From NCBI GenBank assembly GCA_045600565.1, contig JAZRYB010000057.1, positions 15,044-79,043 of the forward strand: 64,000 nt of DNA. Direction: 5' to 3'. How positions within the stretch are numbered: position 1 is the stretch's first letter; the number at the start of each line of letters is the position of its first letter. The stretch is from Candidatus Cryptobacteroides sp. GTDB taxonomy: Bacteria; Bacteroidota; Bacteroidia; Bacteroidales; UBA932. Shown piece by piece: positions 1,712 through 46,868 of this stretch. The notes below the pieces were generated by a model that did no database searches, was not told the origin of the DNA, and worked only from the letters and a program-made list of their open reading frames with translations. A program made the translations under genes and the position numbers.

Positions 1712-4176
1712 AAAAAAAGATTTTGACATATTTGGGTGTTGTCATCTTGTTTTTGACGCTTTCTTATGGCTTTGTGCCGCAAGTTCTTGGTGGGAAGATT
1801 GTCAATCAGAGCGATATTTCCGGATATGTGGGGATGTCACACGAGATGAGCGAATGGAACGATGCTCATCCGTCCGACCCGGCTCAGTGGACAGGGTCAA
1901 TGTTCGGAGGTATGCCGACAACCACGATTTCCGCACCCCGGCAGGGTGATTTGACGCAATCCATATATGATTTTCTCCTTCTCGGCAAAAGGCCGGCGAC
2001 ATATTTGTTCATTTCCCTTCTGGGAGCTTTTCTCCTGATGCTGTCGCTTGATATAAATGGTATTCTGGCTTTCGGAGGGGCGATAGCGGTGACATTCTGT
2101 GCCTATAACTTCCAGATAATTCAGGTAGGGCACAACACCAAAATGCAGGCGATTGCCTTTCTCCCGTGGGCACTTGCCGGGCTGATATACACATATAAGA
2201 GTATTTTCAAGGATAAATATTTATTGAAAGCTCTTCTTGGCGCGTCTCTGTTCGCCTTTGCCCTGAGCTTCCAGATAAAAGCCAATCATCAGCAGATAAC
2301 ATATTATCTCGCGATAATGATATTGCTGTATGCTGTTGTCCAATTTGTCTGGCTTGTTTCATCCAAGGACAGGAGAAGATTTACAGGTCGTTTTTTTGTA
2401 GTGTCCCTATTGTTGCTTGTCATTGGTAGTGTCGGCATTGCCACTAATGCCAATAAATTGATTCCTATATATCAATATACCCCATACTCAATGCGTGGAG
2501 GCTCTGAGTTTGCCGCAGAAGGAGAAGGGAATGCCGGTCTCGATATAGATTATGCCACGGCGTGGTCTTATGGGTGGGAAGAGCTACCGAATCTGATGAT
2601 TCCGAACTTCAACGGCGGCTCTTCTGCCGGAGCTGTCAATCCATCGCGTTCAGAGACTTATGATTTGCTTAAAAGAGCCGGACAGAGCAATCTGAGTGAG
2701 GTTTGCAATAATCTTCCCCTGTATTGGGGGCCTCAGCCTTTCACGGCAGGACCGATGTATATGGGTGCCATTGTTGTTTTTCTGTTTGTCCTTGGTCTGG
2801 GATTATGTAAGGGAAAAGAGAAATGGTGGATAGTCATAGTCTCGGTTCTTGCTGTTTTTTTGGCGGTTGGCAGCCATTGGCTCTGGTTTACGAAGCTCTG
2901 GTATGATTACGTTCCTTTCTATAACAAATTCAGGACGGTGTCGATGTCTCTTGTCGTCTTGCAAGTGACTATGCCTGTGCTTGGCTTCCTTGCACTTGAC
3001 AAGGTAATGAAGGGTGATGTGGACCGCGAGCAGTTCAAGAAAAGCGACTATATCGCTCTTGCGGCAACAGGCGGTTTCTGCTTGTTGTGCTGGTGTTTCC
3101 CGGGAATAGCAGGAAGTTTTTCAGGCGGGTCGGATTCCTCTATGTCGGATGTGTTGGTAGATGCATTGGTTGCAGACCGCATTACCATTTTCAGAAGTGA
3201 TGCGCTTCGTTCATTCTTGCTCATTGTCTCTGCATCATCACTTTTGTGGTGGGCTTACCGGGACAGGAAGGGAGGGAGCACACGTCTTCGCACGTCTTCT
3301 ATTCTGATATGTGTGTTGGTGCTTATCGATATGTTTGCTGTCGGCAAGAGATATCTGAATGGCGGTGATTTTGTATATCCAAGAGATTTCAAGGCGCAGT
3401 TCACCAAGCGGCCCGTGGATGAAGCCATACTTGAGGATCCGGCACCATCATATAGAGTTCTTGACTTGACGGTCAATGTGTTCAATGACTCTCATCCTTC
3501 TTACTGGCACAAGAATATCGGAGGATATTCTCCGGCTAAGCTCCAGCGCTATCAGGATGTCATTGACAGATATCTCGTTTCTGAAATCAATTCGATTTAT
3601 AAGGCGGCGGGGGATGTGGCCACTTTGCAAGAGCTTGATACCCGAATGCCATCCATTCCGGTGCTTTCCGCTTTGAATTGCAAGTACATTATTCTTGGTG
3701 ATGACATTCCGCCTTTGGTCAATCGGCAGGCATTCGGCAATGCCTGGTTTGTCTCTTCCGAGCCTTCCACCGGCACACCGCAGGAGCAGATAGAGTCCCT
3801 TGGCGATGTGGGGAGTAATGTTCTGGACAGTGACCTATATAAAATAGAAATGACGTCATATACTCCCGACGAGCTGCATTTTCATTACAATATTCCTCAG
3901 GACGCTACAGCTCTTTTCAGTGAAATATGGTATCCTGACGGATGGCACGCCATCTTGGAGAATGGTGACGTGGTGGATGTTTTCGGCGCGGATTGGATTC
4001 TCAGAGGGGCAAGGCTCCCGGCCGGAGAGCACGACCTTGTGATGAGATTTGATTCTCAATCCGTGGGAGCAGGGCGCAGTATTTCGCTTGTGTCTTCGAG
4101 TTTACTGATTATTCTTTTGTTATTGACCGTGATATGGATGTTCGTGCAAAAAAGGCACTCGGCCAGCATTTTTTGA
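1708..4176 (+). CDS. YfhO-family polytopic membrane protein (GT-C-like)
   Basis: 822 aa with many TM segments; WTGSMFGGMP, YWGPQPFTAGPMYMG, IGGYSPAKLQRYQD and FSEIWYP.GW motifs. Confidence 0.85.
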   Translation: MKKKILTYLGVVILFLTLSYGFVPQVLGGKIVNQSDISGYVGMSHEMSEWNDAHPSDPAQWTGSMFGGMPTTTISAPRQGDLTQSIYDFLLLGKRPATYLFISLLGAFLLMLSLDINGILAFGGAIAVTFCAYNFQIIQVGHNTKMQAIAFLPWALAGLIYTYKSIFKDKYLLKALLGASLFAFALSFQIKANHQQITYYLAIMILLYAVVQFVWLVSSKDRRRFTGRFFVVSLLLLVIGSVGIATNANKLIPIYQYTPYSMRGGSEFAAEGEGNAGLDIDYATAWSYGWEELPNLMIPNFNGGSSAGAVNPSRSETYDLLKRAGQSNLSEVCNNLPLYWGPQPFTAGPMYMGAIVVFLFVLGLGLCKGKEKWWIVIVSVLAVFLAVGSHWLWFTKLWYDYVPFYNKFRTVSMSLVVLQVTMPVLGFLALDKVMKGDVDREQFKKSDYIALAATGGFCLLCWCFPGIAGSFSGGSDSSMSDVLVDALVADRITIFRSDALRSFLLIVSASSLLWWAYRDRKGGSTRLRTSSILICVLVLIDMFAVGKRYLNGGDFVYPRDFKAQFTKRPVDEAILEDPAPSYRVLDLTVNVFNDSHPSYWHKNIGGYSPAKLQRYQDVIDRYLVSEINSIYKAAGDVATLQELDTRMPSIPVLSALNCKYIILGDDIPPLVNRQAFGNAWFVSSEPSTGTPQEQIESLGDVGSNVLDSDLYKIEMTSYTPDELHFHYNIPQDATALFSEIWYPDGWHAILENGDVVDVFGADWILRGARLPAGEHDLVMRFDSQSVGAGRSISLVSSSLLIILLLLTVIWMFVQKRHSASIF

Positions 4177-18966: not shown

Positions 18967-20061
18967 ATGAATTCACATCATTACTGTGTCATAATGGCGG
19001 GCGGAATCGGGTCCAGATTCTGGCCGTTGAGCCGGGTGCGGAGGCCTAAGCAGTTCCTTGATTTCGGCACGGGAAAGTCATTCCTGAGGTTGACCTATGA
19101 CAGGTTCTTCCGGATTATTCCTCACGAAAATATCATTGTGGTGTCTTTGACTCAGTATAAGGAGCAGGTTATGCAGCATCTGCCCGAGTTGCCCGAAGAG
19201 AATCTCCTGCTGGAGCCTTTGAACAGAAATACAGCTCCTTGTCTCGCGTATGCTACGTATGAGATACTGAAGCGTGACCCCCGGGCCGTCATAGTGGCGA
19301 CTCCTGCCGATCATATGATAGGTGATTTGGACTTGTTCGAGAAAGCCATCTGCAATGCTCTTGAGTTCGCTTCAGAAAGAGAAGCGCTGATAACTCTCGG
19401 CGTCGTCCCGGATCGTCCTGATACCAATTTCGGATATATTCAGGTCGTCGGTGGAAAAGAATCTTATCAGGAGGATAAGTTGTTGAAAGTTAAGACTTTC
19501 ACAGAAAAGCCAGATGCTGATTTGGCTGAGGTGTTCGTCAAGAGCGGTGAGTTCTTGTGGAATTCCGGTATCTTTGTATGGCAGGCTTCCGTTATTCGTG
19601 AGGAGTTGGAGAAGTACTTGCCGCACGTGACCGCTCTTTTCCGCGGCTGGGAGAATTATATGGGGACTCCGTCCGAACAGGCCAATATAGATAAAGCTTA
19701 TGTGGAGATGAGCAGGGTGTCCATCGATTATGGCGTGATGGAGAAGACAGACAGGGTCTGCCTGTATCCGGTCAGATTTGGATGGGCGGACATCGGCAAT
19801 TGGGAGTCATTCTACGGCTATATTTCCGGTAAGGATTTGAATGGCAATTCCATCAAGACTGCCGGAATGCATTTGCTTCAGGGTGACCGTAACAATGTCA
19901 TTTATTCCAAGAGCGAGGGCAAGCTGGTAGCCATCAAGGATCTTGAAGACTATATTGTTATTGATACGGACGATATTCTGATGATTTGTCCGCGCGACGA
20001 CAAGAAGATTAAAGAAGTTATTTCCCACATCGGATTGCCGGATTATGAAGAATACAGATAA
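18967..20061 (+). CDS. manC: Mannose-1-phosphate guanylyltransferase
   Basis: IMAGGIGSRFWPLSR..PKQF, EP..RNTAP, FTEKP, WNSGIF, SIDYGVMEK, GWADIG; alternative TTG start at 18958. Confidence 0.92.
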   Translation: MNSHHYCVIMAGGIGSRFWPLSRVRRPKQFLDFGTGKSFLRLTYDRFFRIIPHENIIVVSLTQYKEQVMQHLPELPEENLLLEPLNRNTAPCLAYATYEILKRDPRAVIVATPADHMIGDLDLFEKAICNALEFASEREALITLGVVPDRPDTNFGYIQVVGGKESYQEDKLLKVKTFTEKPDADLAEVFVKSGEFLWNSGIFVWQASVIREELEKYLPHVTALFRGWENYMGTPSEQANIDKAYVEMSRVSIDYGVMEKTDRVCLYPVRFGWADIGNWESFYGYISGKDLNGNSIKTAGMHLLQGDRNNVIYSKSEGKLVAIKDLEDYIVIDTDDILMICPRDDKKIKEVISHIGLPDYEEYR

Positions 20062-20065
20062 AAAT

Positions 20066-20734
20066 ATGAAGGTGGTTATTAGCGGATATGGCAAAATGGG
20101 CCATATGGTCGAAAGTGTATTGAAAAATAAAGGCATAGAGTTGGCTATGGCCTCTGAGAACGTGTGTGAGATAGACAAGAGTCTGGCCTCGGAGTGTGTA
20201 TGCATTGATTTTACGACGCCAGAAGCGTTTCGGGCGAATTATAAGTTCTTGGCAGCCAACTTCAAAGCTGTTGTAGTAGGGACTACGGGGTGGAATGATA
20301 TCAAGGAGGATGTCATCGGAGAGTTCGAGAAAAACGGGACACCGATGATATATGCGTCCAACTTCTCAATCGGCGTCAACGCTTTTTTTGCAGGCGTCGA
20401 GCGTGTTTGTGAGGTGTTGAAGGGATATGGATATAATCCTTCCGTCACGGAGATTCATCATATCCATAAGCTTGATGCCCCAAGTGGGACGGCCAAGAGT
20501 GTCGGAGGAATAATCACAGATGTAATGGGTGTCGAACCGAAAATCGAATCCATCAGGGAGGGGGAGGTCCCCGGGACTCATATTGTGGAGCTCAGGAGCG
20601 AGTGCGACAGACTCGCTTTTACTCACGAAGCATTCTCCCGCCAGGGATTTGCCGAAGGCGCTGTTGCCGCGGCTCTTATGACGGAGAGCCTTTCAGGAGT
20701 CCATGAATTCAGAAATTTAATACTTGACAAATAG
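20066..20734 (+). CDS. dapB: 4-hydroxy-tetrahydrodipicolinate reductase
   Basis: GYGKMG, DFTTP, VGTTGW, ASNFSIG, EIHHIHKLDAPSGTA. Confidence 0.95.
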   Translation: MKVVISGYGKMGHMVESVLKNKGIELAMASENVCEIDKSLASECVCIDFTTPEAFRANYKFLAANFKAVVVGTTGWNDIKEDVIGEFEKNGTPMIYASNFSIGVNAFFAGVERVCEVLKGYGYNPSVTEIHHIHKLDAPSGTAKSVGGIITDVMGVEPKIESIREGEVPGTHIVELRSECDRLAFTHEAFSRQGFAEGAVAAALMTESLSGVHEFRNLILDK

Positions 20735-20743
20735 GACACATAT

Positions 20744-21628
20744 ATGAAATCTCTTTTTATTTCAGGTTGCGGTACTGCATTGGTCACGCCTTTTAAGAAG
20801 GGCGGATCAGTTGACTATGAGGCTTTCGCAAAATGTATAGACCGTCAGGTGGACGGAGGCGTTGATTTTCTTGTTCCGATTGCAACGACAGGAGAGGCCC
20901 CGACGCTGAATAATGAGGAAAAAATCAATTTAGTGCATGTTGCCAAAGAGCATTCCCAAGGTTTGCCTTTGCTTGTAGGCTGCGGCTCAAACTCTTATGA
21001 CGCAACTGTTGCAAACATCAGATTGCTCGAAAACGAGGGTGCCGATGCGTTTCTCGTTGTGGTACCATTTTACAACAAACCGACTCAAGAGGGTCAGTAT
21101 CAATATTTCAAGGCTGTTGCCGCTGCGACAGACAAGCCTGTTGTCATATATAATGTGCCGGGAAGGACCGGTGCCAATATGTCGGCCGACACTGCTTTGA
21201 AGCTTGCAAATGATTGTCCTAACATCATCGGCACGAAAGAGGCCTCCGGCAATTATTCTCAAGTCAGCGAGATTATCCGCAAGGCTCCCGAAGGGTTCGC
21301 CATTATCAGTGGAGATGATGATATGACTTTTGCCTTTATGGCAACAGGCGCTCACGGAGTAATCAGTGTGGCGTCCAATGCTGCTCCTGAGGAAGTCTCA
21401 GCAATGGTTCACGCATTGATGGCGGATGACATGGGAGAGGCTCGAAGGCTTTATCGCAGGCTGAGCCCTCTGTTCAGGAATTGCTTTGTGGAGAGCAGTC
21501 CTATTCCTATCAAGTCCGCTATGGCACAATTGGGCCTGCTGGAGAATGTTCTCAGACTGCCTCTTATTCCGTCTTCAGAGAAGACAGATGCCGTTATGGC
21601 GGAGACACTGAAGAATCTGTGGCAGTAG
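20744..21628 (+). CDS. dapA: 4-hydroxy-tetrahydrodipicolinate synthase
   Basis: TALVTPF, ATTGE, PFYNKP, YNVPGRT, KEASG, SGDD. Confidence 0.97.
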   Translation: MKSLFISGCGTALVTPFKKGGSVDYEAFAKCIDRQVDGGVDFLVPIATTGEAPTLNNEEKINLVHVAKEHSQGLPLLVGCGSNSYDATVANIRLLENEGADAFLVVVPFYNKPTQEGQYQYFKAVAAATDKPVVIYNVPGRTGANMSADTALKLANDCPNIIGTKEASGNYSQVSEIIRKAPEGFAIISGDDDMTFAFMATGAHGVISVASNAAPEEVSAMVHALMADDMGEARRLYRRLSPLFRNCFVESSPIPIKSAMAQLGLLENVLRLPLIPSSEKTDAVMAETLKNLWQ

Positions 21629-21637
21629 GCGGACAGA

Positions 21638-22954
21638 TTATTGCGTTTTCTCCCTTTGAATATGGGCACCGAGGGCATTCAGACGAAGGTCAATGTCCTC
21701 GTAGCCTCTGTCAATCTGTTCGATATTATCAATAGTTGATGTCCCTTTGGCAGACATTGCGGCAAGGAGCATAGCGATACCGGCTCTTATATCGGGCGAT
21801 GTCATACGTCCGGCACGGAGCTGTAATTTGTGGTCGTGCCCGATGACAACGGCCCTGTGAGGGTCGCACAGTATGATTTGTGCCCCCATATCAATCATCT
21901 TGTCAACAAAGAACAGTCTGCTCTCGAACATCTTCTGGTGTATCAGGACACTGCCTCTGCATTGTGTGGCCACGACAAGCAATACAGACAGGAGATCCGG
22001 GGTAAGTCCCGGCCAGGGCGCATCGGCAAGAGTCATTATTGATCCATCGAGGAAGGACTCGATTTCATAACTGTCCTGTGCGGGGATGAAGATATTTTCG
22101 CCCCGTCGCTCCAGATGGATGCCGAGACGGCGGAAGCAGTCCGGGATTATGCCGAGATTGGTGGGGGATACGTTTTTGATAGTGATTGAACTCTGATTGA
22201 TGGCGGCCATCCCTATGAAGCTTCCGACTTCAATCATATCGGGCAGGATTCTGTGATTTGCTCCGTGGAGCTCTTCAATACCGGTTATTGTAAGAAGGTT
22301 TGACCCTATGCCCTCAATCTGAGCACCCATCGCGAGGAGCATCCTGCAAAGTTGCTGGATGTAAGGCTCACAGGCGGCATTGTAAATGGTGGTTTTCCCT
22401 TCTGCGAGAACGGCGGCCATTACGATGTTGGCGGTCCCGGTGACGGACGCCTCGTCGAGGAGCATATACGTGCCTTTCAATCTCCCTTTTGAAACGAGAT
22501 GAAATGCCTGTTTATCATTGTTGTAGGAGAGATCGGCTCCAAGGTGTCTGAAGCCTTCCAGATGGGTGTCCACCCTGCGACGACCGATTTTGTCGCCCCC
22601 CGGCTTTGGGAAATATGAGCTGTGGAAGCGTGCGAGCAAAGGCCCGACTACCATAACGGAGCCTCTCAAAGCCGAACACCTGCTGACAAAGGCTTCACTT
22701 TCAATATATTCTTGATTGATATCATTAGCGCAAAATGTGTAGCATCCTTTTTCCTGACAGGTCACTTTGACTCCCATATCCTTGAGCAGGGAGATGAGAT
22801 TCCGGACATCCAGAATCTCCGGGATGTTAGAGATTGTCACTTCTTTGTCAGTCAGAAGTACTGCACTGATGACTTCCAGAGCCTCATTTTTGGCTCCCTG
22901 AGGCGTTATCTCACCGCTAAGGCGGTGTCCTCCTTCAATAATGAAACTGCTCAT
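21638..22954 (-). CDS. murA: UDP-N-acetylglucosamine 1-carboxyvinyltransferase
   Basis: GAKN, PGGDKIGRR..DTH, SVTGTAN, PDMIE, DIRAG, IDRGYE. Confidence 0.96.
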   Translation of the reverse strand: MSSFIIEGGHRLSGEITPQGAKNEALEVISAVLLTDKEVTISNIPEILDVRNLISLLKDMGVKVTCQEKGCYTFCANDINQEYIESEAFVSRCSALRGSVMVVGPLLARFHSSYFPKPGGDKIGRRRVDTHLEGFRHLGADLSYNNDKQAFHLVSKGRLKGTYMLLDEASVTGTANIVMAAVLAEGKTTIYNAACEPYIQQLCRMLLAMGAQIEGIGSNLLTITGIEELHGANHRILPDMIEVGSFIGMAAINQSSITIKNVSPTNLGIIPDCFRRLGIHLERRGENIFIPAQDSYEIESFLDGSIMTLADAPWPGLTPDLLSVLLVVATQCRGSVLIHQKMFESRLFFVDKMIDMGAQIILCDPHRAVVIGHDHKLQLRAGRMTSPDIRAGIAMLLAAMSAKGTSTIDNIEQIDRGYEDIDLRLNALGAHIQREKTQ

Positions 22955-23021
22955 ATTCCGTGCAAGTTACAAATAATCCCAACAATGGCAAAGAGGTCTA
23001 TGCTATTCAGAGAAATTAATT

Positions 23022-23040
23022 ATTTCAAAACAGGTTCTAA
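23022..23040. repeat. 19-bp repeat ATTTCAAAACAGGTTCTAA overlapping the thrC stop codon (IS-end-like)
   Basis: Identical to 25260-25278; 16-bp core shared with 4931-4946 (one mismatch). Confidence 0.85.
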
Positions 23041-24326
23041 CAGCAGGGGAGATTTTTCACCAGTTCGTCAAGACTGTTGTCTATGGTGATGCATTCCCTC
23101 TTTTTCTTGAGGATTTCCTCCAGCTTTTCCGGCAGGTCCGGATACTTCCCGAGAGCCCTGTGTATGACTTCTCCGAATTTTGCGCAATGTGCAGTGGCGA
23201 GATAGAATCCTTCGGCGTCGCTGTCCCTCGCCGCGAGAAAAGCTGTGGCGGCGTGAGGGTCGGAAATGAAGCCGAACAGGTCATTGATCTGTTTTATCCC
23301 GTTGATTATCTGCTCATCAGAATATGAGAACCCCACGACATTCCTTATCAGGTTTTCATAATTCCCATACAGAGCCATCATTCTTTCATAATTGCTTGGC
23401 GCTCCGACATCCATCGCGTTTGCGACGGTTCTCACAGAAGGTCTAGGGCGGTATTCTCCGCTCTTGAGAAATTCCGGAATGACCGAATTGGCGTTGGAGG
23501 CGGCGATGAATCTGCGCACCGGGAGTCCCATAGCCGCCGCGAGCATTCCCGCTGTGATGTTCCCATAGTTGCCGCTTGGAACCACGATGTCGGGCTCACC
23601 TTTCCCTCCGTTGCCCACCCATTGTGCCCAGGCGAAGAAATAATAGAAGGATTGGGGTATCCAGCGCAGGATGTTAATCGAATTGGCGGATGTGATATTA
23701 TGAGACTTGCGCAACTCTTTGTCGTTGAATGCGGCCTTGACCAGAGCCTGACAATCATCAAAGCAGCCTCTCACGCGCATAGGGTGAATATTGTGACCGA
23801 GAGTTGTCATCTGGCTTTCCTGCAGGGGACTGACTTGCCCTTCGGGGAAGAGCACAACCACATCAATGCCGGGAACATCGAAGAATCCGGCGGCAACAGC
23901 ACTGCCGGTATCGCCTGAGGTGGCGGTGAGCACTGTCAGAGCCTCCCTGCCGTCATTCAACAGCCCCAGCATAGCTCCCATAAATCTCGCTCCGAAATCC
24001 TTGAATGCGAAGGTCGGACCGTGGAACAACTCCAGCACTGAAAGCTTGTTGCCCAGTTGTCGCAAAGGGCAGGAGAAATCATAGGCGCGTTTTATTGCAG
24101 CGTGCATGGCTTCGGCCGGAACGTCCCCGGCGAAGAAGAGATCCGCAAGGTAGCAGGCCAGATCCGCATAGGAAAGAGCCGCCAGACGTTTCACCTCATT
24201 CAGGTCAACGGACGGAACGAATTCGGGCATGAACAGGCCTCCGTCAGGGGCGAGTCCGGCAAAAGCGGCCTCTTTGAGAGAATAATCCGCGCGATGAAGC
24301 GCATCTCGCGTGCTATAGTATTTCAT
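23037..24326 (-). CDS. thrC: Threonine synthase
   Basis: GLAPDGGLF, ELFHGPTFAFKDFG, ATSGDTGSA, NSINILR, PSGNYGN. Confidence 0.97.
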   Translation of the reverse strand: MKYYSTRDALHRADYSLKEAAFAGLAPDGGLFMPEFVPSVDLNEVKRLAALSYADLACYLADLFFAGDVPAEAMHAAIKRAYDFSCPLRQLGNKLSVLELFHGPTFAFKDFGARFMGAMLGLLNDGREALTVLTATSGDTGSAVAAGFFDVPGIDVVVLFPEGQVSPLQESQMTTLGHNIHPMRVRGCFDDCQALVKAAFNDKELRKSHNITSANSINILRWIPQSFYYFFAWAQWVGNGGKGEPDIVVPSGNYGNITAGMLAAAMGLPVRRFIAASNANSVIPEFLKSGEYRPRPSVRTVANAMDVGAPSNYERMMALYGNYENLIRNVVGFSYSDEQIINGIKQINDLFGFISDPHAATAFLAARDSDAEGFYLATAHCAKFGEVIHRALGKYPDLPEKLEEILKKKRECITIDNSLDELVKNLPCC

Positions 24327-25261
24327 AATGTTATTCCGGTAAGTTTTGCTCCTTTATTTGACACTTTGACCACATAGACCTCACAATTGACATTGTGTGA
24401 AGTGAAATGATCTTTCATAATCTTGCCTGCGGCTTCGGCCCGGCTCCGGTGGTCGCAAAGGGCGAACATTGAAGGCCCGGAACCGGATATGTTGGCTGCC
24501 AGAGCACCGCTCGACATAATCTTTTCTCGCAGTTCATCAAATCCCGGGATGAACTGTTTGCGGTACGGCTCAGCCACATAATCTTGCATAGAGCGTCCCA
24601 CAAGCCCGATGTTCCCGGAATAAAGACCGGCTATGAGACCTCCCACGTTTCCCCATTGACGCACGGCGTCGTGCATAGGGACCTTGTGCGGCAGAATCTC
24701 ACGGGCTTCCTTTGTCGAGACCATCAGATGTGGGTGAACCACAGCACAATAGAAATTGCCCGGGACGGGGAGTTGGATCAAATCCAAAGGCTCATAACCC
24801 CTGATAAGCACGATACCGCCCATAACGGCCGGAGCCGCATTGTCGGCGTGATATCCGCCGCTTGCGAGATTCTCTCCCTCCATAGCGCACATAACGACCT
24901 CTTCTTCACTCAGCGGGCAGCCGTACAATTCGTTCATTCCGAATGCGGCCGCGGCGGAGGATGCGGCACTGGACCCTATGCCCGAGCCGGGATAAATCTT
25001 TTCACATATGGTGACGTCAATCTGTGCCTTCTGACCTATTCTCTTCAGAAAGGAACGGATGACAGGTGTGATGACATTCTTTTCGGGGTCTTCGGGGAGG
25101 GGAACTCCACTCTCATTCGTGATGGAAAGACCGTCACCGGGACTTTGTGTGATTTCAATGATGTCTCCCACTTCGTCAAGGGCCAGTCCGATGACATCAA
25201 ATCCGCATCCCATATTGGCAATGGATGCCGGAGCAAACACTCTAACTTTTTTCATAATCAT
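24323..25261 (-). CDS. thrB: Homoserine kinase (GHMP type)
   Basis: APASIANMGCGFD, PGSGIGSSAAS, HADNAAP, ISGSGP; alternative start at 25255. Confidence 0.95.
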   Translation of the reverse strand: MIMKKVRVFAPASIANMGCGFDVIGLALDEVGDIIEITQSPGDGLSITNESGVPLPEDPEKNVITPVIRSFLKRIGQKAQIDVTICEKIYPGSGIGSSAASSAAAAFGMNELYGCPLSEEEVVMCAMEGENLASGGYHADNAAPAVMGGIVLIRGYEPLDLIQLPVPGNFYCAVVHPHLMVSTKEAREILPHKVPMHDAVRQWGNVGGLIAGLYSGNIGLVGRSMQDYVAEPYRKQFIPGFDELREKIMSSGALAANISGSGPSMFALCDHRSRAEAAGKIMKDHFTSHNVNCEVYVVKVSNKGAKLTGITL

Positions 25262-25278
25262 TTCAAAACAGGTTCTAA
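25260..25278. repeat. 19-bp repeat ATTTCAAAACAGGTTCTAA between the attenuator terminator and thrB start
   Basis: Identical to 23022-23040. Confidence 0.85.
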
Positions 25279-25315
25279 AAAGAAGCCTGCCGGATTGTCT
25301 CTCTGGCAGGCTTCT
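25277..25315 (-). terminator. Attenuator terminator of the thr leader
   Basis: Perfect 11-bp stem AGAAGCCTGCC/GGCAGGCTTCT with a U5 tract on the minus strand. Confidence 0.88.
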
Positions 25316-25339
25316 GAATTATCGGTTTGTCGGGCACCG

Positions 25340-25405
25340 CTAACAACCTGGCCAGATGAAAATCTGTCCGGTGGTGGTAGTGGTGGTGGTTGTTCTTACG
25401 GTCAT
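25340..25405 (-). CDS. Thr operon leader peptide MTVRTTTTTTTTGQIFIWPGC (thrL-like; not in ORF track)
   Basis: 21 codons with 9 Thr, 8 of them consecutive, directly upstream of a terminator and thrBC. Confidence 0.9.
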   Translation of the reverse strand: MTVRTTTTTTTTGQIFIWPGC

Positions 25406-25414
25406 AACTGTCGA

Positions 25415-25422
25415 CTAAGGTA
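25415..25422 (-). promoter_or_regulatory. Variant -7 element TACCTTAG, 9 nt before the leader ATG
   Basis: One mismatch to TAnnTTTG in the only intergenic space available. Confidence 0.5.
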
Positions 25423-25446
25423 AGAAACGAATATCAAAAAACAAAA

Positions 25447-26649
25447 TTAATCTGCAGAAAAAGCGACTCTTTTGTATTCTATCCACCCGGCTATGTAGCA
25501 AAGAATGCAATAGATACCGGTCTGTATGGCAAGTCCCAGCAGGAGGTCTGACACCTCGTTGAGGCTGCAACCTGCTGTATTGAGATTGATGAATGCAGGG
25601 CAGGCGAATGATGTCGGGAAAATGAAAGAGAACAGCCTCCAGAATTTCGGGAATGCCGTCACAGGCCAGGAAAAACCTGTCAGGAACATCACTATCGGGG
25701 AGATGAACAGCAGAGTCACGAGCACCGTCTCCCTTCTCTTGAAGAATGAACTCCAGAATGTGGCGAAGAAGACGCAGGAGGTCACATAGAGCAAAAGCAG
25801 AATGATAATGTCCAAGAAATCACCCCGTTGTGGGAATTTGAACAGTGCCGGGACTATGCAGGCGATGTAGATTCCGATAATCAGGAACATCAGCCAATAT
25901 GCGATGCCTCTGCCGAAAATAATTCTCCCGATACCTCGGTGGCCTTCTTTTGCATAGAGCCTGAAATAAGACGCCCCCTCTTCTCTTGAGGTCCCGGTTC
26001 TCAGAATCAATCCATAAAACAGCACTTGCTGAATTATGAGCAGAAGGGCCGCTGATAAGAAGAAGATTGTGTAGGAGAATGTTCTGTTGTAGGGATTGTT
26101 CTCTTCATACGGGATGGCCTCAATCAATTGAGAAATCTCCTGCCCTGACATTCCTGCGGCGCTGTATCTCTCAATCTTAATCTGCTTCATCTCATCCAAC
26201 ATTACAAAATGGGTCCCCATCATCAGGTTTTTGTAATAAAGGAAACTGCTCATATCCGCATAGATGGACAGCGTGGCGACTTTACCTTCAACTATGTTGC
26301 GCCCGAAGTCTTCCGGAAAATAAATCACACCGTTCACTTCCCCTTTGCGCATCAGGTCTTGGGCTTGGGCCATATCCTGACATTTCTTGGACACACTCAA
26401 TTCTCTGGTCGCATCCACTTTCCTGATATAGCATCGGCTTTCCATAGAATGGGAGCAATCCACGACGGCAATCGGGGTGTCTTCAAGAATCCCGTTGTGA
26501 TAAATGCAGTTGTATAGTAAAGGGTATCCGAGTCCTGCCGCAAGGAAGATAATCATCACACCATCATCGTGCAGCAGCCTTCTGACTTCCTCATAGAACA
26601 CTGAGAAAGCCACGTGGAACCAGTTTTCAATTCTTTTCATAAATATCAA
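25447..26649 (-). CDS. ABC-2-type exporter permease
   Basis: N-terminal TM, IAVVD...S..SR periplasmic domain, NPYN, five C-terminal TMs, FLTGFSWP. Confidence 0.85.
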   Translation of the reverse strand: MIFMKRIENWFHVAFSVFYEEVRRLLHDDGVMIIFLAAGLGYPLLYNCIYHNGILEDTPIAVVDCSHSMESRCYIRKVDATRELSVSKKCQDMAQAQDLMRKGEVNGVIYFPEDFGRNIVEGKVATLSIYADMSSFLYYKNLMMGTHFVMLDEMKQIKIERYSAAGMSGQEISQLIEAIPYEENNPYNRTFSYTIFFLSAALLLIIQQVLFYGLILRTGTSREEGASYFRLYAKEGHRGIGRIIFGRGIAYWLMFLIIGIYIACIVPALFKFPQRGDFLDIIILLLLYVTSCVFFATFWSSFFKRRETVLVTLLFISPIVMFLTGFSWPVTAFPKFWRLFSFIFPTSFACPAFINLNTAGCSLNEVSDLLLGLAIQTGIYCILCYIAGWIEYKRVAFSAD

Positions 26650-27812
26650 TTAATCGGACAATCCTGATTGATGTATGCTTTTTTCAGTTTAGGTAGGAAG
26701 ATAATCGGCAATATGAGAAATCCCAACATCTGGATGACCTCGGGCCACCAACTTCCGAAGCCGTTTCCGAACAAAGAGACCTCCTTTTCTATCAGGAAGT
26801 AATGTCGGAGCGGAAAAATAAAAGCAAACCCCCTGATGGAACTCGGCATGGCTTCTACCGGGAGGGTGAATCCCGTGAAACTCAAGGCCAGCACGCTGAA
26901 GATTGCTCCGATGCTCAGGGCGAAGCGGCAAGTCGGGACGAGTTCGATGAACAGCAGCGCGGAGGCCTCGCTGGCAATCACAAGCAGAAACATATCCAGC
27001 AACATAGCCGTGAACGAGCCGTTCATCGGGAACTTCATCACCCCATACAGCAGCAATTCAACCAGAAAGCCAATCAGAGTGAAGAACAAAGTATAGACTA
27101 TGAGTTTTCCGCCTACAGCTGTGGATATAGAATCCCCCGACACCGTCAGGAGCTCGCGCGAGGTCTTGTATTTCAACTCTGTACCCAGAGAATAGACAAG
27201 AATCAGGACAATGACCATCGCAAGAGTCCCCGGGAGCATCTTGGTGGAGAGACAAGCATTGTAGCTTGTGAGAGGATTGCCGATTTTGTGGAGATCGATG
27301 TTCACCGGTCTCAACATACCTTGCATTTGCTGAGGAGGAATACCCTTTGCTTCGAGTACTTGCTTCTGGACGGCGCCGGAGGTCAGATAAATCATAGTCA
27401 ACAAATTCTGGTATGACAGAGCTCCTCCGACGAAATACAGACCATTTATGTAAATGGTGATTTTGGGCTGTCTGTTGGCCTGCAGGTCATCATTGAATCC
27501 TTGCGGGATGTGACATATTGAAGTTATCTTTCCCTTTTGCATTTCCGACCTCGCTTCGGAATAGGTGCTGAATCGGACCACCTCGCCAAGCTGTGTTGCG
27601 TCCAGTTGGGAGGTGAAGTTTCTGGAAAGAGAAGAATTGTCTTCGTCCACGATGCCTATCGGAAGTCCGTGCGGTAGCCCGTCGCCAAGAAAGGTCAGGT
27701 AAAAGAGGGAGCAGAATGCCATTATCGCCAAGGGTGCGACATAATAGACAGGACGTTTCCTCCAGATTCGCAGTTCCCTCAAGATTACATTCTTTATATT
27801 GAGGACAGTCAT
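26646..27812 (-). CDS. ABC-2-type exporter permease
   Basis: IGIVDEDNSSLSR, GNP..SY, FTGFTLP. Confidence 0.85.
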   Translation of the reverse strand: MTVLNIKNVILRELRIWRKRPVYYVAPLAIMAFCSLFYLTFLGDGLPHGLPIGIVDEDNSSLSRNFTSQLDATQLGEVVRFSTYSEARSEMQKGKITSICHIPQGFNDDLQANRQPKITIYINGLYFVGGALSYQNLLTMIYLTSGAVQKQVLEAKGIPPQQMQGMLRPVNIDLHKIGNPLTSYNACLSTKMLPGTLAMVIVLILVYSLGTELKYKTSRELLTVSGDSISTAVGGKLIVYTLFFTLIGFLVELLLYGVMKFPMNGSFTAMLLDMFLLVIASEASALLFIELVPTCRFALSIGAIFSVLALSFTGFTLPVEAMPSSIRGFAFIFPLRHYFLIEKEVSLFGNGFGSWWPEVIQMLGFLILPIIFLPKLKKAYINQDCPIN

Positions 27813-27819
27813 AATATCA

Positions 27820-28797
27820 TTATTTGAGGAGAGCGGTCATTCCGGGAATCAATCCTTCCACAGCTGAGTCGGGGATGGCGCGGATTTCAAAAGTCTTGGC
27901 ATCGAATTGACCGATTTCCTTTGTGGCTTTCCAAGTTGCATAGGAGTCTCTGGCCGTGAGGTAATTGATTGTGGCCCGGACAGTTTTCCCGTCGAGAGCG
28001 GGGATTTCAACGGTCAGGACATCACCGATTTTCATACTGTGGAGATAATCTTCGCGCACATTGAATGTAAACCAGATATCCGACAAGTCGGTAACTGTCA
28101 TAACAGGTGCGCCCTGGCCGACAAGTTCTCCGACTTTCGGGTAAATGGCGGAGATGAGCCCGTCTGCGGGTGCGGTCAGATATAGTTCATCAAGATAGCC
28201 CTGAACCTCCATCAGCGCGCCTTCTGCCTGGTGGACAAGGGCGAGCGCCGCCGCTTTGTCTTCTTCTCTCGCACCGTTTGCAGCCATATCATATTGACTT
28301 TTTGCTGCAAGTTCCTGAGCCGCCGCCGCATCATATTTGGCCTGGACTTCATCGAATTTCTGGGATGAAATCACTTTCTCATCATAAAGGCGACGCATCC
28401 TGTCAAGCGATTTTTTCAGGACATCTTTCTGGACGATTGCTGTCTGCCATACCTGATAGGCTCCGGCTATCTGCTCCTGACGGGCTCCGTTCGAAGCCTT
28501 GAGTCTTTGAGCCTCCGCCGCATCCTTGGCGGCATTCACCTGCGCAAGCTTTGCCCTGACCTCAGGAGAATCAATCAAGACGAGAGTGTCTCCCTTGTGG
28601 ACATAAGACCCTTCGCGCACATATAGTTCTTCAATACGGCCGGGGACTTTACCCGATACCCTGAATTCGGAGGCTTCAGCTTCCCCTTGAATGACTATTG
28701 GTTTCGGACGTGAAACAAAATATCCTACGATACCGACGATGGCCAGAATTACAATCAGGGCGGCCAGCCCACCCGCCAATTTGCGATAACTTTCCAT
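27820..28797 (-). CDS. HlyD-family periplasmic adaptor
   Basis: TM anchor, SGKVPGRIEELYVREG lipoyl half, coiled coil, APADG.IS, PGMTA. Confidence 0.92.
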   Translation of the reverse strand: MESYRKLAGGLAALIVILAIVGIVGYFVSRPKPIVIQGEAEASEFRVSGKVPGRIEELYVREGSYVHKGDTLVLIDSPEVRAKLAQVNAAKDAAEAQRLKASNGARQEQIAGAYQVWQTAIVQKDVLKKSLDRMRRLYDEKVISSQKFDEVQAKYDAAAAQELAAKSQYDMAANGAREEDKAAALALVHQAEGALMEVQGYLDELYLTAPADGLISAIYPKVGELVGQGAPVMTVTDLSDIWFTFNVREDYLHSMKIGDVLTVEIPALDGKTVRATINYLTARDSYATWKATKEIGQFDAKTFEIRAIPDSAVEGLIPGMTALLK

Positions 28798-28812
28798 ATT
28801 GACAATTATTTT

Positions 28813-30324
28813 TTATTCGTAATAAATAGTGTTTCCTTCAGCTCTGTTGAGATTTGATTCAATCATCTGCAACTCAATGCTCGAGTCTATAAACTCCGAG
28901 TGGGCTTTCAACCAGGCCGATTGTGCCGCCAATGTCACGTTTGATTCGACCACACCCTCCTCGAATCCGAGCATCGCGGCTCTGAGGTTCTCCTCGGCAC
29001 AATCAAGATTGCTTCTGGTCATCTCCAACTTTGAGAGGGCTTCCCGTCTCTTAGAATACAGTTGTGATACCTCGAGATTGACGAGCTTGACATATTCTTC
29101 ATACTTTGAGCGGTACAAGGACGCTTCGGTCTTTGCTTTTTGAGTCTTCTTCAGCGCTTCCAGTCCGTGGAAGACAGGCACCTTCATTATGACTCCGGCG
29201 GTCCAGAATCCTCTCAAATCTTTCTGGAATCCGTTATTCAGATTCGGGGTGGTCACAATATAGTTGGCGTTGAGCGCTATCTGTGGCATCATATCAGCCC
29301 TTGCCACCTTGATTTTCTGCTCATAAATCTTGACAGCATCATTGATGCTGCGCAATTCCGGGCGGCAACTGACAATCTCATCCAGATTCTTTGCAGGACG
29401 CTCATCAGGTACAGGAATCTTCTCCGTACCTTCATCAACGAGACAAATCTCCGAGTCAAGCGGAAGACCGATCAGTTTGCAAAGAAGCATCTTGGCGAGT
29501 TTCAGGCCATCATCGGCCTGTGTAAACATCATCGAAGCCTCGTTTGCCTTTACTTTTATTGCCAATCGGTCGGAAGTTGTATAGATACCCTCATCCACAA
29601 GGATGTCGGCATCGTGTTCCATGGTCTTGAGAAAGTCGGAGTAATTCTTGGCGAGCTCTTTTTTTGCCGCTATCGACACTATCTGCCAATATGCCTGGTC
29701 AACATTGACAATAGTTTGCCTGTATTGAATGTCATATTTGTCTTTTGCAAGCTCTTCTGCAAAACGGGCTATTTTGTTGGAGGCAATGATTTTCCCCCCT
29801 GCGAACAACGGCTGCTCGAGGCTTACTCCAGCAAGGAAAATCTGCCGGAGATCCGGATGCAGAAGGTTGTCGATACTGCTGCCTATGTCATTTACAGCCT
29901 GGGATATGTCGGTTGAAGATAAGGTCTTGAGCATAGTCTGCCACATAGGACTCTGAATGTATTCCTGAGCCAGGGCAGGATTTGTCATTATCATCTGCTG
30001 GATATCCCCAAGCTTGCCGGTGAGACTGTTTTGAAGCATTGTGCCGGCATTTCTCAACACGGCTCCTTGCTCTTCACCTATCAGATTGATTTCCGCTGTG
30101 TTATAAAAATAGGTACCGGCGGCCGATATGTTCGGGAAATAATTGGCTCGCGCTATGGCTCTATCATAGCGTGCCATATCTGTACTGATGCGCGCTTGCT
30201 CAAGGGCTTTGTCATTTTTGAGCGCAAGACTCCGGCAGACCTCGAGACTCAACTTCTCCTGGGCCTGACAGCACATTGATATAGAAAAGGTGAGAACCGC
30301 TAAAATTGTTTTTTTGATGCACAT
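28813..30324 (-). CDS. TolC-family outer-membrane efflux protein
   Basis: Signal peptide, LSLE.C..LALKN, ARANYFPNIS, QPLFAGGK. Confidence 0.9.
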   Translation of the reverse strand: MCIKKTILAVLTFSISMCCQAQEKLSLEVCRSLALKNDKALEQARISTDMARYDRAIARANYFPNISAAGTYFYNTAEINLIGEEQGAVLRNAGTMLQNSLTGKLGDIQQMIMTNPALAQEYIQSPMWQTMLKTLSSTDISQAVNDIGSSIDNLLHPDLRQIFLAGVSLEQPLFAGGKIIASNKIARFAEELAKDKYDIQYRQTIVNVDQAYWQIVSIAAKKELAKNYSDFLKTMEHDADILVDEGIYTTSDRLAIKVKANEASMMFTQADDGLKLAKMLLCKLIGLPLDSEICLVDEGTEKIPVPDERPAKNLDEIVSCRPELRSINDAVKIYEQKIKVARADMMPQIALNANYIVTTPNLNNGFQKDLRGFWTAGVIMKVPVFHGLEALKKTQKAKTEASLYRSKYEEYVKLVNLEVSQLYSKRREALSKLEMTRSNLDCAEENLRAAMLGFEEGVVESNVTLAAQSAWLKAHSEFIDSSIELQMIESNLNRAEGNTIYYE

Positions 30325-44846: not shown

Positions 44847-44919
44847 TGAAATTTTTTTATTTCTTTGCAGTTCAAACGTGGAATTTGGACAAAATAATAA
44901 TAAACTAAAATCTAAAGTT

Positions 44920-45168
44920 ATGGAATACGAGGAAATCGTAAAGAAAGTCAAAGCTATTATCGTAGATAAACTTGGCGTAGAAGAGACAGAAGTTACCGAG
45001 ACAGCCAATTTCACAAATGACCTCGGAGCAGACTCTCTTGATACAGTGGAGCTCCTTATGGAGTTTGAGAAAGTTTTCGGAGTCAAGATTCCAGATGAGG
45101 AGACGAGCTCAATAGCAACTGTTCAGGATGCAATCGATAAAGTTGCTGAGAAAGTGGCGCAGAAGTAA
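44920..45168 (+). CDS. acpP: Acyl carrier protein
   Basis: [18 protein letters not shown]. Confidence 0.97.
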
Positions 45169-45185
45169 AATTTCTGATAATAAAT

Positions 45186-45217
45186 AAAGGGGCCGCCCAA
45201 TATTGGGCGGCCCCTTT
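45186..45217. terminator. Bidirectional terminator (32-bp perfect palindrome) between acpP and the convergent lipoprotein gene
   Basis: AAAGGGGCCGCCCAAT|ATTGGGCGGCCCCTTT. Confidence 0.88.
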
Positions 45218-45239
45218 TATCGTGTTCTGCTGCTGTCCC

Positions 45240-46868
45240 TTACTCTTTCGGCACGGAATAAACGACTCTGAGCCGTGGCCTTCTGCCTTCAGGTGCCAGT
45301 GGGCTGTTGATGGCCGCCTTGTAGTACCTGTTGTTGTCAAGCATAATGGCAGACTGTGTCTGGGTATTATTGCTCACCATTGACGAAGCCATTGAATAGC
45401 TGAGATAATTGGAATAGCCGTATCCTCCATAGCCGCCATAGCCGTATCCATAACCGCCATAGCCGTATCCGTAGCCGCCATATCCTCCGTAGCCTCCGTA
45501 GCCGTTGTACATCTGGTTGTAATAGTTGGCATACATAAGATTCTGGTAATAACTGTTCCAATCTTCTTCTGAAGTGACAGTGGAGGTCTTGTATGTTTCG
45601 GTCTTCATTATCATCATCCAGATATCGTAATTGGATATTTTGTCTTTATCCGTTGTCCGCAGGATGGATTGAACGTGATACGAAAGTCCCGGGGCATATT
45701 GGCAGGTGGACCGGTTCAAATAACCCATATTCTCCGTGGACAGACTCGAATTGGTGATACTGGCAAAAGAAATCAGTGTGTCCAGATCGATACGGCAAGT
45801 CGGGTTGAGAATCTCCGGATAATAATCCATATCTGTGTAGTCGTCCGGAAACTCAAAAGGCATAATCAATTCCGCTTTGTGAATGAAAGACTTGGTATAG
45901 TCTCCATACTGGGATATTTCTGCAATCAGCTTTTCCTTGATTTCCGCTGCGGAGAATACCGGTTTCGGGCTGCCTCCTCCTTCGATAGGGATGACCTCGG
46001 TGATTTGCTTGGAAGGAGCCTCGACTGTGGCGTTGAATGCATATTGCGGCAGCAGTCCGATAGTGCTGTTGGTTAACAGAGAATCAGAATCATAGAACTT
46101 GTCAAGCCCAAAAAGGAAAATGAAAGAAGTGTCCTTGGACTTTCCGTTATATTCTGCAGTGAATTCCAGATTGGCATAACTCCCGGTGATGGCGTAATTG
46201 TTCCCGTCGACATCGGCTTGAACTGAAAACATATTGAAACGTCCGCCTTGCCCCAGAGGCTCGTCAACATTGAAAAGGATGCCGGGGTATTTCTTGAGAT
46301 ATGTATTTATGTCTTTCAGGTCCTCCTGCTTGATATTGAGGTATTTGCTTGCGAATTCTTCTGAAAAGTCAAATGTCAGCGAATCTCCGCCGTTGTACAC
46401 GGGGACACCTCTGGTCACGCGTGTGGTGCCGTGCTCAGGGATATGGTTTCCGTCTAAGATTGAGATAGGCTTGGTCAACTCGAACACGTTGACATTCTGC
46501 ATTACTCTGGATTGGGAAGGATCCGCCGCGGAGATGGTGTCGGCCGGCATTGTGAAAAAGAATCGCCTCAGTTTTGTGTTCTGCCCGAAGTCCAGAGTGT
46601 CATAGAATGGGACGAGTGTGATTGCACTCTCTCTTGTGGAGAGACGGGATTCTGCATCTCTGATAGCTCCGAATGTGATATGTCTTGAAGAATATCCTGA
46701 GAGACTGTCGGCAACCTTCAGAGTGACATCTTCAAGATCAAACTCGAAAATCTTCATTTCGTATTCCTGGTCTGCGGGAACGAGGTTTCGGCCAACACTG
46801 TTGTCTATTTTTACGCAGGAATACGTGCAAAGGACAGCGGCAAAGAAAGGGAGTAACTTAAAGTTCAT
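45240..46868 (-). CDS. Outer-membrane lipoprotein, DUF4270-like, with a Gly/Tyr-rich tract
   Basis: Lipobox TYSC; beta-rich; C-terminal PRLRVVYS; position downstream of a glycogen-synthase-like gene as I recall for Bacteroidales DUF4270 genes (family call by context). Confidence 0.65.
   Translation of the reverse strand: MNFKLLPFFAAVLCTYSCVKIDNSVGRNLVPADQEYEMKIFEFDLEDVTLKVADSLSGYSSRHITFGAIRDAESRLSTRESAITLVPFYDTLDFGQNTKLRRFFFTMPADTISAADPSQSRVMQNVNVFELTKPISILDGNHIPEHGTTRVTRGVPVYNGGDSLTFDFSEEFASKYLNIKQEDLKDINTYLKKYPGILFNVDEPLGQGGRFNMFSVQADVDGNNYAITGSYANLEFTAEYNGKSKDTSFIFLFGLDKFYDSDSLLTNSTIGLLPQYAFNATVEAPSKQITEVIPIEGGGSPKPVFSAAEIKEKLIAEISQYGDYTKSFIHKAELIMPFEFPDDYTDMDYYPEILNPTCRIDLDTLISFASITNSSLSTENMGYLNRSTCQYAPGLSYHVQSILRTTDKDKISNYDIWMMIMKTETYKTSTVTSEEDWNSYYQNLMYANYYNQMYNGYGGYGGYGGYGYGYGGYGYGYGGYGGYGYSNYLSYSMASSMVSNNTQTQSAIMLDNNRYYKAAINSPLAPEGRRPRLRVVYSVPKE

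Follow-up and report, generated by a model that had tools for sequence, protein, structure and literature searches.

In the 64,000-nucleotide (nt) stretch of a Candidatus Cryptobacteroides sp. genome analysed here (contig JAZRYB010000057.1, the whole stretch being called the window), the minus strand encodes homoserine kinase (thrB) and threonine synthase (thrC) as an overlapping gene pair, with murA downstream of thrC. Ahead of thrB lies a short open reading frame (ORF) containing an uninterrupted run of threonine codons, and the RNA between this run and thrB can adopt alternative helices, the last of which is an intrinsic terminator (Table 1). Further upstream, on the same strand as the leader, is a TolC/HlyD/ABC-2 exporter cluster (30324-25447); the stop codon of its ABC-2 permease gene (25449-25447) is separated from the leader ATG by 41 nt, and no terminator was detected between the exporter genes and this ATG (positions 25406-25449). 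As judged from the sequence and its predicted folds, these elements very probably form a threonine-responsive, ribosome-mediated (leader-peptide) transcription attenuator, by which expression of thrB-thrC would follow the supply of charged tRNA-Thr. The sequence elements themselves, their mutual exclusivity, the folding energies, the geometry of the ribosome footprint, and the conservation and partial covariation in 16 sequences are computed results and are described below.

Table 1. Features of the leader region and of the genes placed under its control
Feature	Position	Strand	Basis and remarks
Candidate -33 element, TTTG (Bacteroidetes sigma-ABfr-type)	25445..25442	-	Directly after the ABC-2 permease stop codon; predicted from the motif
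Candidate -7 box, TACCTTAG	25422..25415	-	Five of six consensus positions of TAnnTTTG; 9 nt from the leader ATG; predicted 5' untranslated region (UTR) of about 5 nt
Leader ORF, 21 codons plus stop, peptide MTVRTTTTTTTTGQIFIWPGC	25405..25340	-	Sequence; homologous Thr-run ORFs in 15 loci
Regulatory Thr run, 8 consecutive codons (ACA ACC ACC ACC ACT ACC ACC ACC)	25393..25370	-	Sequence, folding; doubles as 5' arm of the extended protector
Extended protector (anti-antiterminator)	25385..25335	-	Thr codons pair with G/U-rich GGUUGUUAGCGGUG past region 2, inner hairpin nested; -17.7 kcal/mol
Region 2, antiterminator 5' arm, CUGGC(C)AGGUU, CUGGCCAGGUU	25355..25345	-	Starts 13-15 nt past the last Thr codon, ends 2 nt before the stop codon; with a ribosome masked on the Thr run the nascent antiterminator has -20.8 to -23.3 kcal/mol
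Region 3, terminator 5' arm, common to the antiterminator	25315..25303	-	Folding, family alignment
Intrinsic terminator, 11-bp stem (plus 2 inner pairs) 25315-25281, U5 25281-25277	25315..25277	-	-21.7 kcal/mol (ViennaRNA)
thrB, homoserine kinase (GHMP type), 312 amino acids	25261..24323	-	NF002288, E 3.8e-110; first gene under proposed control
thrC, threonine synthase, 429 amino acids	24326..23037	-	TIGR00260, E 5.2e-79; 4-nt overlap with the thrB stop, second gene of the unit

The initial annotation of this DNA had placed a leader and three helices, the terminator among them, on the minus strand, and all of these are present in the sequence exactly to the base. The leader reads ATG ACC GTA AGA ACA ACC ACC ACC ACT ACC ACC ACC GGA CAG ATT TTC ATC TGG CCA GGT TGT TAG, with the ATG at 25405-25403 and the stop codon at 25342-25340, and it is the sole short ORF of the 64-kb window with eight identical residues in a row, besides its own reverse-complement image. 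This image, a plus-strand ORF (MKICPVVVVVVVVLTVITVD, 25356-25418) with a run of eight valines, was judged a by-product, as it mirrors the Thr run, reads into antisense of the ABC-2 gene and is followed by no valine-related gene. A histidine (CAC) frame over the run was also rejected, as no start codon precedes the run in that frame, and the only other ORF at the run begins with TTG at 25346. The 156-nt leader region as a whole folds with -45.9 kcal/mol (z = -4.74), a stability reached by none of 200 shuffled sequences.

The terminator, AGAAGCCUGCC-AG..CC-GGCAGGCUUCU, is separated from the leader ORF by a 24-nt spacer and ends 19 nt before the thrB ATG. Its 5' arm can pair alternatively with region 2, which is complementary to AGCCTGCCAG (25312-25303) with one bulged C; this duplex amounts to -16.4 kcal/mol, and only 2 of 500 shuffles were as good. 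The third helix had been described as the hairpin GGACAGAT/TTTC/ATCTGGCC, which in RNA reads GGACAGAU-UUUC-AUCUGGCC. This inner hairpin does occur at 25369-25350, is weak as a protector by itself (-6.5 kcal/mol), and is nested within a more extensive structure in which the Thr codons themselves are paired. Because these codons form the 5' arm of the protector (region 1 of the classical design), only a ribosome positioned on the Thr run would free region 2. The features that define the class of leader-peptide attenuators, namely an ORF with tandem Thr codons, an intrinsic terminator, a mutually exclusive antiterminator and a protector, are in this way found together in silico.

The same arrangement was searched for in relatives of the window, collected by ThrB protein scans from 80 loci (one genome per species) and 75 further loci from metagenomes, 155 loci in all (fetched thrB loci, labelled in the style L001-L155). 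The closest ThrB relatives (78-89% identity) come from horse, ruminant and pig gut metagenome-assembled genomes (MAGs) that carry the label Candidatus Cryptobacteroides or are unclassified Bacteroidales. The sequences ahead of thrB in these loci contained the same module, directly before the gene, in 15 further loci from MAGs and metagenomes of Cryptobacteroides-like Bacteroidales, giving a family of 16 members with the window. The module consists of an ATG, 5-10 Thr codons, a GGNCAG hairpin, an arm resembling CUGGCAGG, a spacer and the terminator; examples of the leader ORFs of relatives are MRFNLTTTTTTTTGQFYWHG, MRMIITTTTTTTTGQKKFWSGV, MTRNITTTTTTTTTGQMHFWPGE, MRNITTTTTTTGTGQ, MRLTTTTTTTTTGLG, MTQNFTTTTTGTTGQR, MKAIYTTTTTTGTRMNAFRREF and MKNSFIVTTITTTGQISGLAR. 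The genes upstream of the module vary in identity and strand, tRNA genes being found a few hundred bases upstream in some loci, and since these neighbours differ between loci the module travels with thrBC and not with the upstream gene.

Over the 16 members the Thr run displays A at codon position 1 in 94% and C at position 2 in 93% of cases, with a variable position 3 (C 58%, T 32%, A 9%, G 2%), and its length differs between members by whole codons. In the aligned sequences this pattern is the signature of selection for threonine in this reading frame. The residues that follow the run differ among relatives (GQFYW, GQKKFW, GQR*, GTGQ*, GLG*) and vary with the RNA arms, W-P/S-G occurring where UGG-NCA-GG is encoded; by this comparison the Thr run alone is under selection in the peptide.

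A GC-rich hairpin with a U-rich tail lies 16-74 nt ahead of thrB in 16/16 members, and the terminator helix is 89.5% paired across the aligned family, with compensatory changes in 6 of its 11 pairs and a covariation score reached by none of 500 shuffles. Region 2 resembles CUGGCAGG and thus the terminator 3' arm, a single base being bulged in most cases; it begins 12-16 nt past the last Thr codon in every member and is able to pair with the terminator 5' arm in all 16. The stop codon is near enough for a ribosome to occlude region 2 in 15/16, the peptides being 15-25 amino acids long, and the nested protector arrangement was found in the untranslated minimum free energy folds of 12 out of 13 distinct members. 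The attenuator architecture of terminator, mutually exclusive antiterminator and anti-antiterminator is therefore conserved in 16 sequences with differing upstream neighbours. Scored with a covariance model made from the family, its 16 members reach 78-112 bits, and no other full-length match was obtained in 930 kb (window plus the 155 loci).

From these elements we infer translation of the ORF, termination at about 25277, threonine-responsive read-through and the position of the transcript start, according to the following scheme. Transcription would begin a few nucleotides upstream of the leader AUG, as suggested by the promoter motif, and a ribosome would start translating MTVRTTTTTTTT. When threonine is plentiful, the ribosome would pass the eight Thr codons, reach the stop codon (25342-25340) and cover region 2 (25355-25345), whereupon the terminator (25315-25281 with its U5) would form and RNA polymerase would stop 19 nt before thrB. 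If no ribosome is loaded, the Thr codons would pair with the G/U-rich spacer and region 2 would be locked in the protector (25385-25335), again leading to termination. When charged tRNA-Thr is scarce, the ribosome would stall on the Thr run and melt the protector, with region 2 staying exposed because 13-15 nt separate its start from the last Thr codon; once 25312-25303 has been made, the exposed arm would pair with it, no terminator would form and the polymerase would read into thrBC.

This scheme was examined by simulating a stalled ribosome, masking it on the Thr run and folding the RNA as it would be before the terminator 3' arm exists, for 14 of the 16 sequences (all but L089 and L116). 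The antiterminator was obtained in each of the 14, with -16.5 to -33.3 kcal/mol, and when the spacer was dinucleotide-shuffled, energies as good were seen in 0-9 of 300 cases. In nascent folds of the same 14 sequences with the ribosome masked at the stop codon, the terminator arm was unpaired or weakly held, and in complete-transcript folds, computed for the first nine sequences with the ribosome at the stop codon, the terminator forms. The folding of alternative structures, which had been suggested as a first check, thus gave the antiterminator under a stalled ribosome and left the terminator arm free or weakly held under a ribosome that had finished the peptide.

Amino-acid specificity was addressed in the window by stepping the masked ribosome codon by codon with three footprint sizes. 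With the A site at any codon as far as Thr12 the antiterminator kept -20.8 to -23.8 kcal/mol, and it was still intact at Gly13; it dropped to -7.8 to -15.4 kcal/mol with Ile15 in the A site and to -4.9 to -6.0 kcal/mol with Ile17, the terminator-arm nucleotides held by the antiterminator falling to 4-8 of 13 and 2 of 13, respectively. The productive stall window of this locus consequently ends at about the last Thr codon and the Ile codons fall outside it. The initial annotation had reasoned that this leader senses threonine only; for this locus the model supports that reasoning, the antiterminator being retained to Thr12/Gly13 and collapsing at Ile15/Ile17, with the residues after the run unconserved.

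These calculations bear on the alternative that survives best, an attenuator of the same kind that would sense threonine and isoleucine (or the branched-chain supply) jointly, like E. coli thrL. It draws on Ile15 and Ile17 of the window leader, on the 2-3 Ile codons that stand immediately ahead of the Thr run in L082-L084, and on a separate, Alistipes-type class of thrBC leaders, described below, that is rich in both Thr and Ile. Isoleucine and valine are also interspersed in the run of L006 (TVTTITTI) and L013 (IVTTITTT), and these relatives may sense Ile/Val too. Yet stalls at Ile15 and Ile17 largely lose the antiterminator in the window, the residues following the run are dictated by the RNA arms and not conserved in the family, and a ribosome stalled at Ile codons ahead of the run, as in L082, would sit too far 5' to open the inner hairpin, so that joint sensing is unlikely.

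A considerably smaller probability is given to a different route of control, be it Rho-dependent termination, translational coupling or occlusion at the thrB start, a trans-acting small RNA generated by termination, or an activity of the peptide. In Sinorhizobium, RNAs derived from attenuators and also leader peptides are known to act in trans (PMC6614838, PMC7298713). In the present family the peptide is conserved in its Thr run only, a canonical GC-rich hairpin with U-tail is common to all 16 members, and the thrB start lies 16-74 nt beyond this hairpin, unpaired in the predicted folds. T-box or riboswitch matches were not found either, at E values up to 10 in positions 20000-30000 of the window or at gathering level in nine relatives. 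The least probable alternative, already disfavoured, takes the hairpin at 25315-25277 as a constitutive terminator of the TolC-HlyD-ABC-2 exporter operon and the Thr ORF as a chance frame, and although the exporter genes are on the same strand and end 41 nt from the leader ATG with no terminator between, so that the hairpin may well stop their read-through too, the ORF-plus-hairpin module precedes thrB in 15 other loci behind different upstream neighbours on either strand or behind tRNA genes, the Thr frame has a coding-type substitution pattern with conserved antiterminator geometry, and the 19 nt between terminator and thrB leave no room for a thrB promoter, such that a constitutive stop would silence thrBC. 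The attenuator terminator probably does both, ending read-through from the exporter operon as well.

Several observations weigh against threonine-dependent attenuation as proposed here. With respect to distribution, the module is narrow, being present in 16 of the 156 thrB loci examined, and some close relatives (ThrB 78-85% identical) are without it. With respect to structure, the U-tract has five U's only, and a generic terminator scan did not call the hairpin at 25315-25277, a miss explained by the rule of that scan, which permits loops of 3-8 nt only. In the RNA made before region 4, the antiterminator (-23.8 kcal/mol) slightly beats the protector (-17.7 kcal/mol) at equilibrium even without a stall; the OFF state would thus depend on the order of co-transcriptional folding and on occlusion by the ribosome, as in classical attenuators. 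The antiterminator is 73.7% paired on the MAFFT alignment, against at most 52% when the arms are slid, and its covariation there was not above the shuffle control. Columns are uninformative in this case because the arms are nearly invariant and the position of the bulge shifts, and the helix was therefore assessed by per-sequence duplexes and a test in which partners were permuted. These speak for the antiterminator: cognate region 2/region 3 partners beat permuted ones, only 114 of 20000 permutations being as good. L011 has a different terminator arm, GGGCUCGCCUG, with a matching antiterminator, CAGGCGAG, and in L085 and L116 an A to G change in region 3 is accompanied by U to C in region 2. 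Taken over the family, the antiterminator covariation is limited.

The sequencing runs containing the window are DNA, from horse or other gut metagenomes, with no RNA run among them, and the pig-gut metatranscriptome contigs for L013 are too sparse and fragmentary for transcript ends to be called, one of them (3867-4105) crossing the terminator into thrB. Leader transcripts may also originate partly upstream, by read-through from the exporter genes, and some of them may therefore have a longer 5' leader.

The initial annotation had further proposed that the leader is nearly leaderless. In Bacteroidetes, promoters carry TTTG near -33 and TAnnTTTG centred at -7 (PMC7366714); a sigma-70 promoter scan was set aside as not applicable to this group. 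The minus-strand layout at the window is TTTG (25445-25442), 19 nt, TACCTTAG, TCGACAGTT and the ATG (25405). Across the family, TTTG, 19-20 nt, a TAnnTTTG-like box, 4-9 nt and the ATG follow one another in 14/16 members, with predicted 5' UTRs of about 0-5 nt, and from this geometry a near-leaderless start is likely for the family. In the window itself a perfect -7 box, TAATTTTG (25449-25442), also occurs 36 nt upstream of the ATG, overlapping the exporter stop codon, and would give a 5' UTR of about 32 nt. The promoter motif therefore makes a near-leaderless start at this locus plausible and not secure. Such starts are infrequent, 5' UTRs shorter than 10 nt being found in only about 4-5.5% of the mRNAs of Bacteroides thetaiotaomicron and Flavobacterium psychrophilum (PMC7366714, PMC9723704).

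The organization of the thr genes also varies among relatives. thrB and thrC are adjacent in nearly all fetched loci, L045 being the one visible exception. The relatives L029-L047 have a thrA-thrB-thrC arrangement, with the bifunctional aspartokinase/homoserine dehydrogenase gene thrA at about 1541-3996 in each locus, and no Thr-rich short ORF was found within about 1.5 kb upstream of thrA in these; the leader accordingly goes with thrBC units that stand alone.

A second, unrelated leader family was observed before thrBC in Alistipes/Rikenellaceae, about 240-310 nt upstream of thrB (L060, L063, L068, L069, L072, L073, L076, L079, L080, L128, L130, L132, L133, L135, L136, L138, L139, L140, L144 and L155). 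Its ORF is 32-48 codons long and contains two clusters rich in Thr and Ile (MLNLHNISTTLATTIIGAISSFVITGIITTTTTTITPMGV is one example); the conserved terminal motif TP.G[VL]* specifies the hairpin ACCCC-NNN-GGGGU at the RNA level. After the ORF, about 150 nt are structurally conserved, including UCUUUUGCCG, a covarying hairpin CUGCC-AAGGUU-GCAG and CGGC, and a strong terminator is not obvious there. Four of these loci (L068, L073, L132, L139) were scanned against Rfam and matched none of its families. In common with the family of the window, it occurs in Bacteroidales and has a short Thr-rich ORF that follows a Bacteroidetes promoter and precedes thrB-thrC, whereas the covariance model of the short family gives at most 20 bits, over the Thr repeats only. 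Variant short ORFs precede thrB in the Alistipes-like loci L061, L066, L067, L071, L131 and L149, and also in L051, L070 and L077; some end in ...GTGIGTGTTPVGVGVHICR, others in ...ATTATTTTPCGVQ or TTATTPAGV, and they are rich in Thr/Ala/Val/Gly and not pure Thr runs. They may be diverged forms of the Alistipes-type leader.

Elsewhere in the window, dapB and dapA, of the lysine branch of the aspartate pathway, lie at 20045-21628 (+), just past murA and divergent from the thrBC-murA strand, so that thrBC and dapBA make a loose grouping of aspartate-family genes. No leader-like ORF was seen at dapB/dapA in the window scan of short ORFs. A Twister-sister ribozyme match in Rfam inside the dapA coding region (21272-21364, +; 23 bits against a threshold of 34, E 0.28) is probably due to chance. 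AAAGGGGCCGCCCAATATTGGGCGGCCCCTTTT, at 45177-45222, is a perfect bidirectional intrinsic terminator between the convergent ORFs 44878-45168 (+) and 45240-46868 (-); it was matched by the terminator half of the thr-leader family model at 25 bits and was judged ordinary.

As the initial annotation had anticipated, the element escapes standard annotation. The Rfam family Thr_leader (RF00506) matches 25280-25414 (-) with 23.0 bits against a gathering threshold of 55 (E 0.92), a match that stems mostly from the ACC repeats and the terminator, and no Rfam family reached gathering level in nine scanned relatives with the same leader type. With a score so far below threshold there is no detectable homology to enterobacterial thrL, and on these comparisons the likeness to it is probably convergent. 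Searchable literature yielded neither a thr leader of the Bacteroidales nor an experimental dissection in the order, the initial annotation having known of no experimentally described example there either; an earlier computational mention may exist, as Vitreschak and co-workers reportedly mentioned attenuators in Bacteroidetes/Chlorobi in 2004. The regulator is of a known kind, leader-peptide attenuation, and represents an uncatalogued conserved family, no earlier threonine example having been found for Bacteroidota in the literature searched.

More tentatively, and with somewhat less than even confidence, the 16 sequences could be seen as a lineage-restricted, independently evolved thr attenuator family of uncultured Cryptobacteroides-like Bacteroidales, whose peptide is translated from a transcript that is leaderless or nearly so. 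If this is true, a phylum without Shine-Dalgarno-guided initiation or sigma-70 promoters would still use tight coupling of transcription and translation, 5'-end-dependent ribosome loading would supply the pioneering ribosome, and, together with the Thr/Ile leader of the Alistipes type, leader-peptide control of thrBC would have arisen at least twice within Bacteroidales.

No general principle is changed by the finding. Its interest lies in that an element of about 130 nt with 15 relatives provides a compact test object for transcription-translation coupling in Bacteroidales, bearing on how ribosomes start at a very short or absent 5' UTR without a Shine-Dalgarno sequence and on how amino-acid synthesis is tuned in abundant uncultured gut Bacteroidales. 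As Rfam and gene callers miss the family, thrBC appears unregulated in annotations, which the family covariance model could amend, and the element is a possible small amino-acid-responsive part for Bacteroides genetics.

Among known systems, leader-peptide attenuation is textbook knowledge in Proteobacteria, and in Bacteroidota it is supported by a small number of predictions, made computationally or from transcriptomes (his, ilv, trp). Enterobacterial thrL is the closest in design. In E. coli it has 8 Thr codons mixed with 4 Ile codons and stands ahead of thrA-thrB-thrC. The window shares with it the short Thr-codon ORF, the trio of protector, antiterminator and terminator upstream of threonine-biosynthesis genes, and the location of the regulatory codons within the protector 5' arm. 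It differs in its pure Thr run (8 codons), in an operon of thrBC that lacks thrA, and in a predicted Bacteroidetes -33/-7 promoter, which would abut the AUG and leave hardly any 5' UTR; a Shine-Dalgarno sequence is absent.

Within the phylum, the Bacteroid-trp motif probably encodes a leader peptide. This motif is listed as cis-regulatory for trp genes (RF01692; PMC2864571), leader-peptide attenuation was predicted for hisG and ilvE of F. psychrophilum (PMC9723704), and short ORFs of B. thetaiotaomicron were likened to leader peptides in general terms (PMC7366714). These cases resemble the thrBC leader in phylum and proposed mechanism, rest on sequence and transcriptome maps and have not been genetically dissected; they concern other amino acids (His, Ile/branched-chain, Trp) in other orders or genes, with no thr leader listed. 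The hisG leader transcript of F. psychrophilum has about 14 nt before the AUG (PMC9723704), compared with the 0-5 nt predicted here.

With regard to the short 5' end, the nearest parallels are the 14 leaderless leader peptides predicted in Deinococcus deserti (PMC4007540) and the polycysteine leaderless short ORFs of mycobacteria (bioRxiv 10.1101/834739). They belong to other phyla, where leaderless mRNAs are common, and their start sites were mapped, whereas those of the thrBC family are predicted from promoter geometry; in these cases a regulatory short ORF is found at, or about 1 nt from, the 5' end of the transcript, upstream of amino-acid genes, as may hold for the thrBC leaders too.

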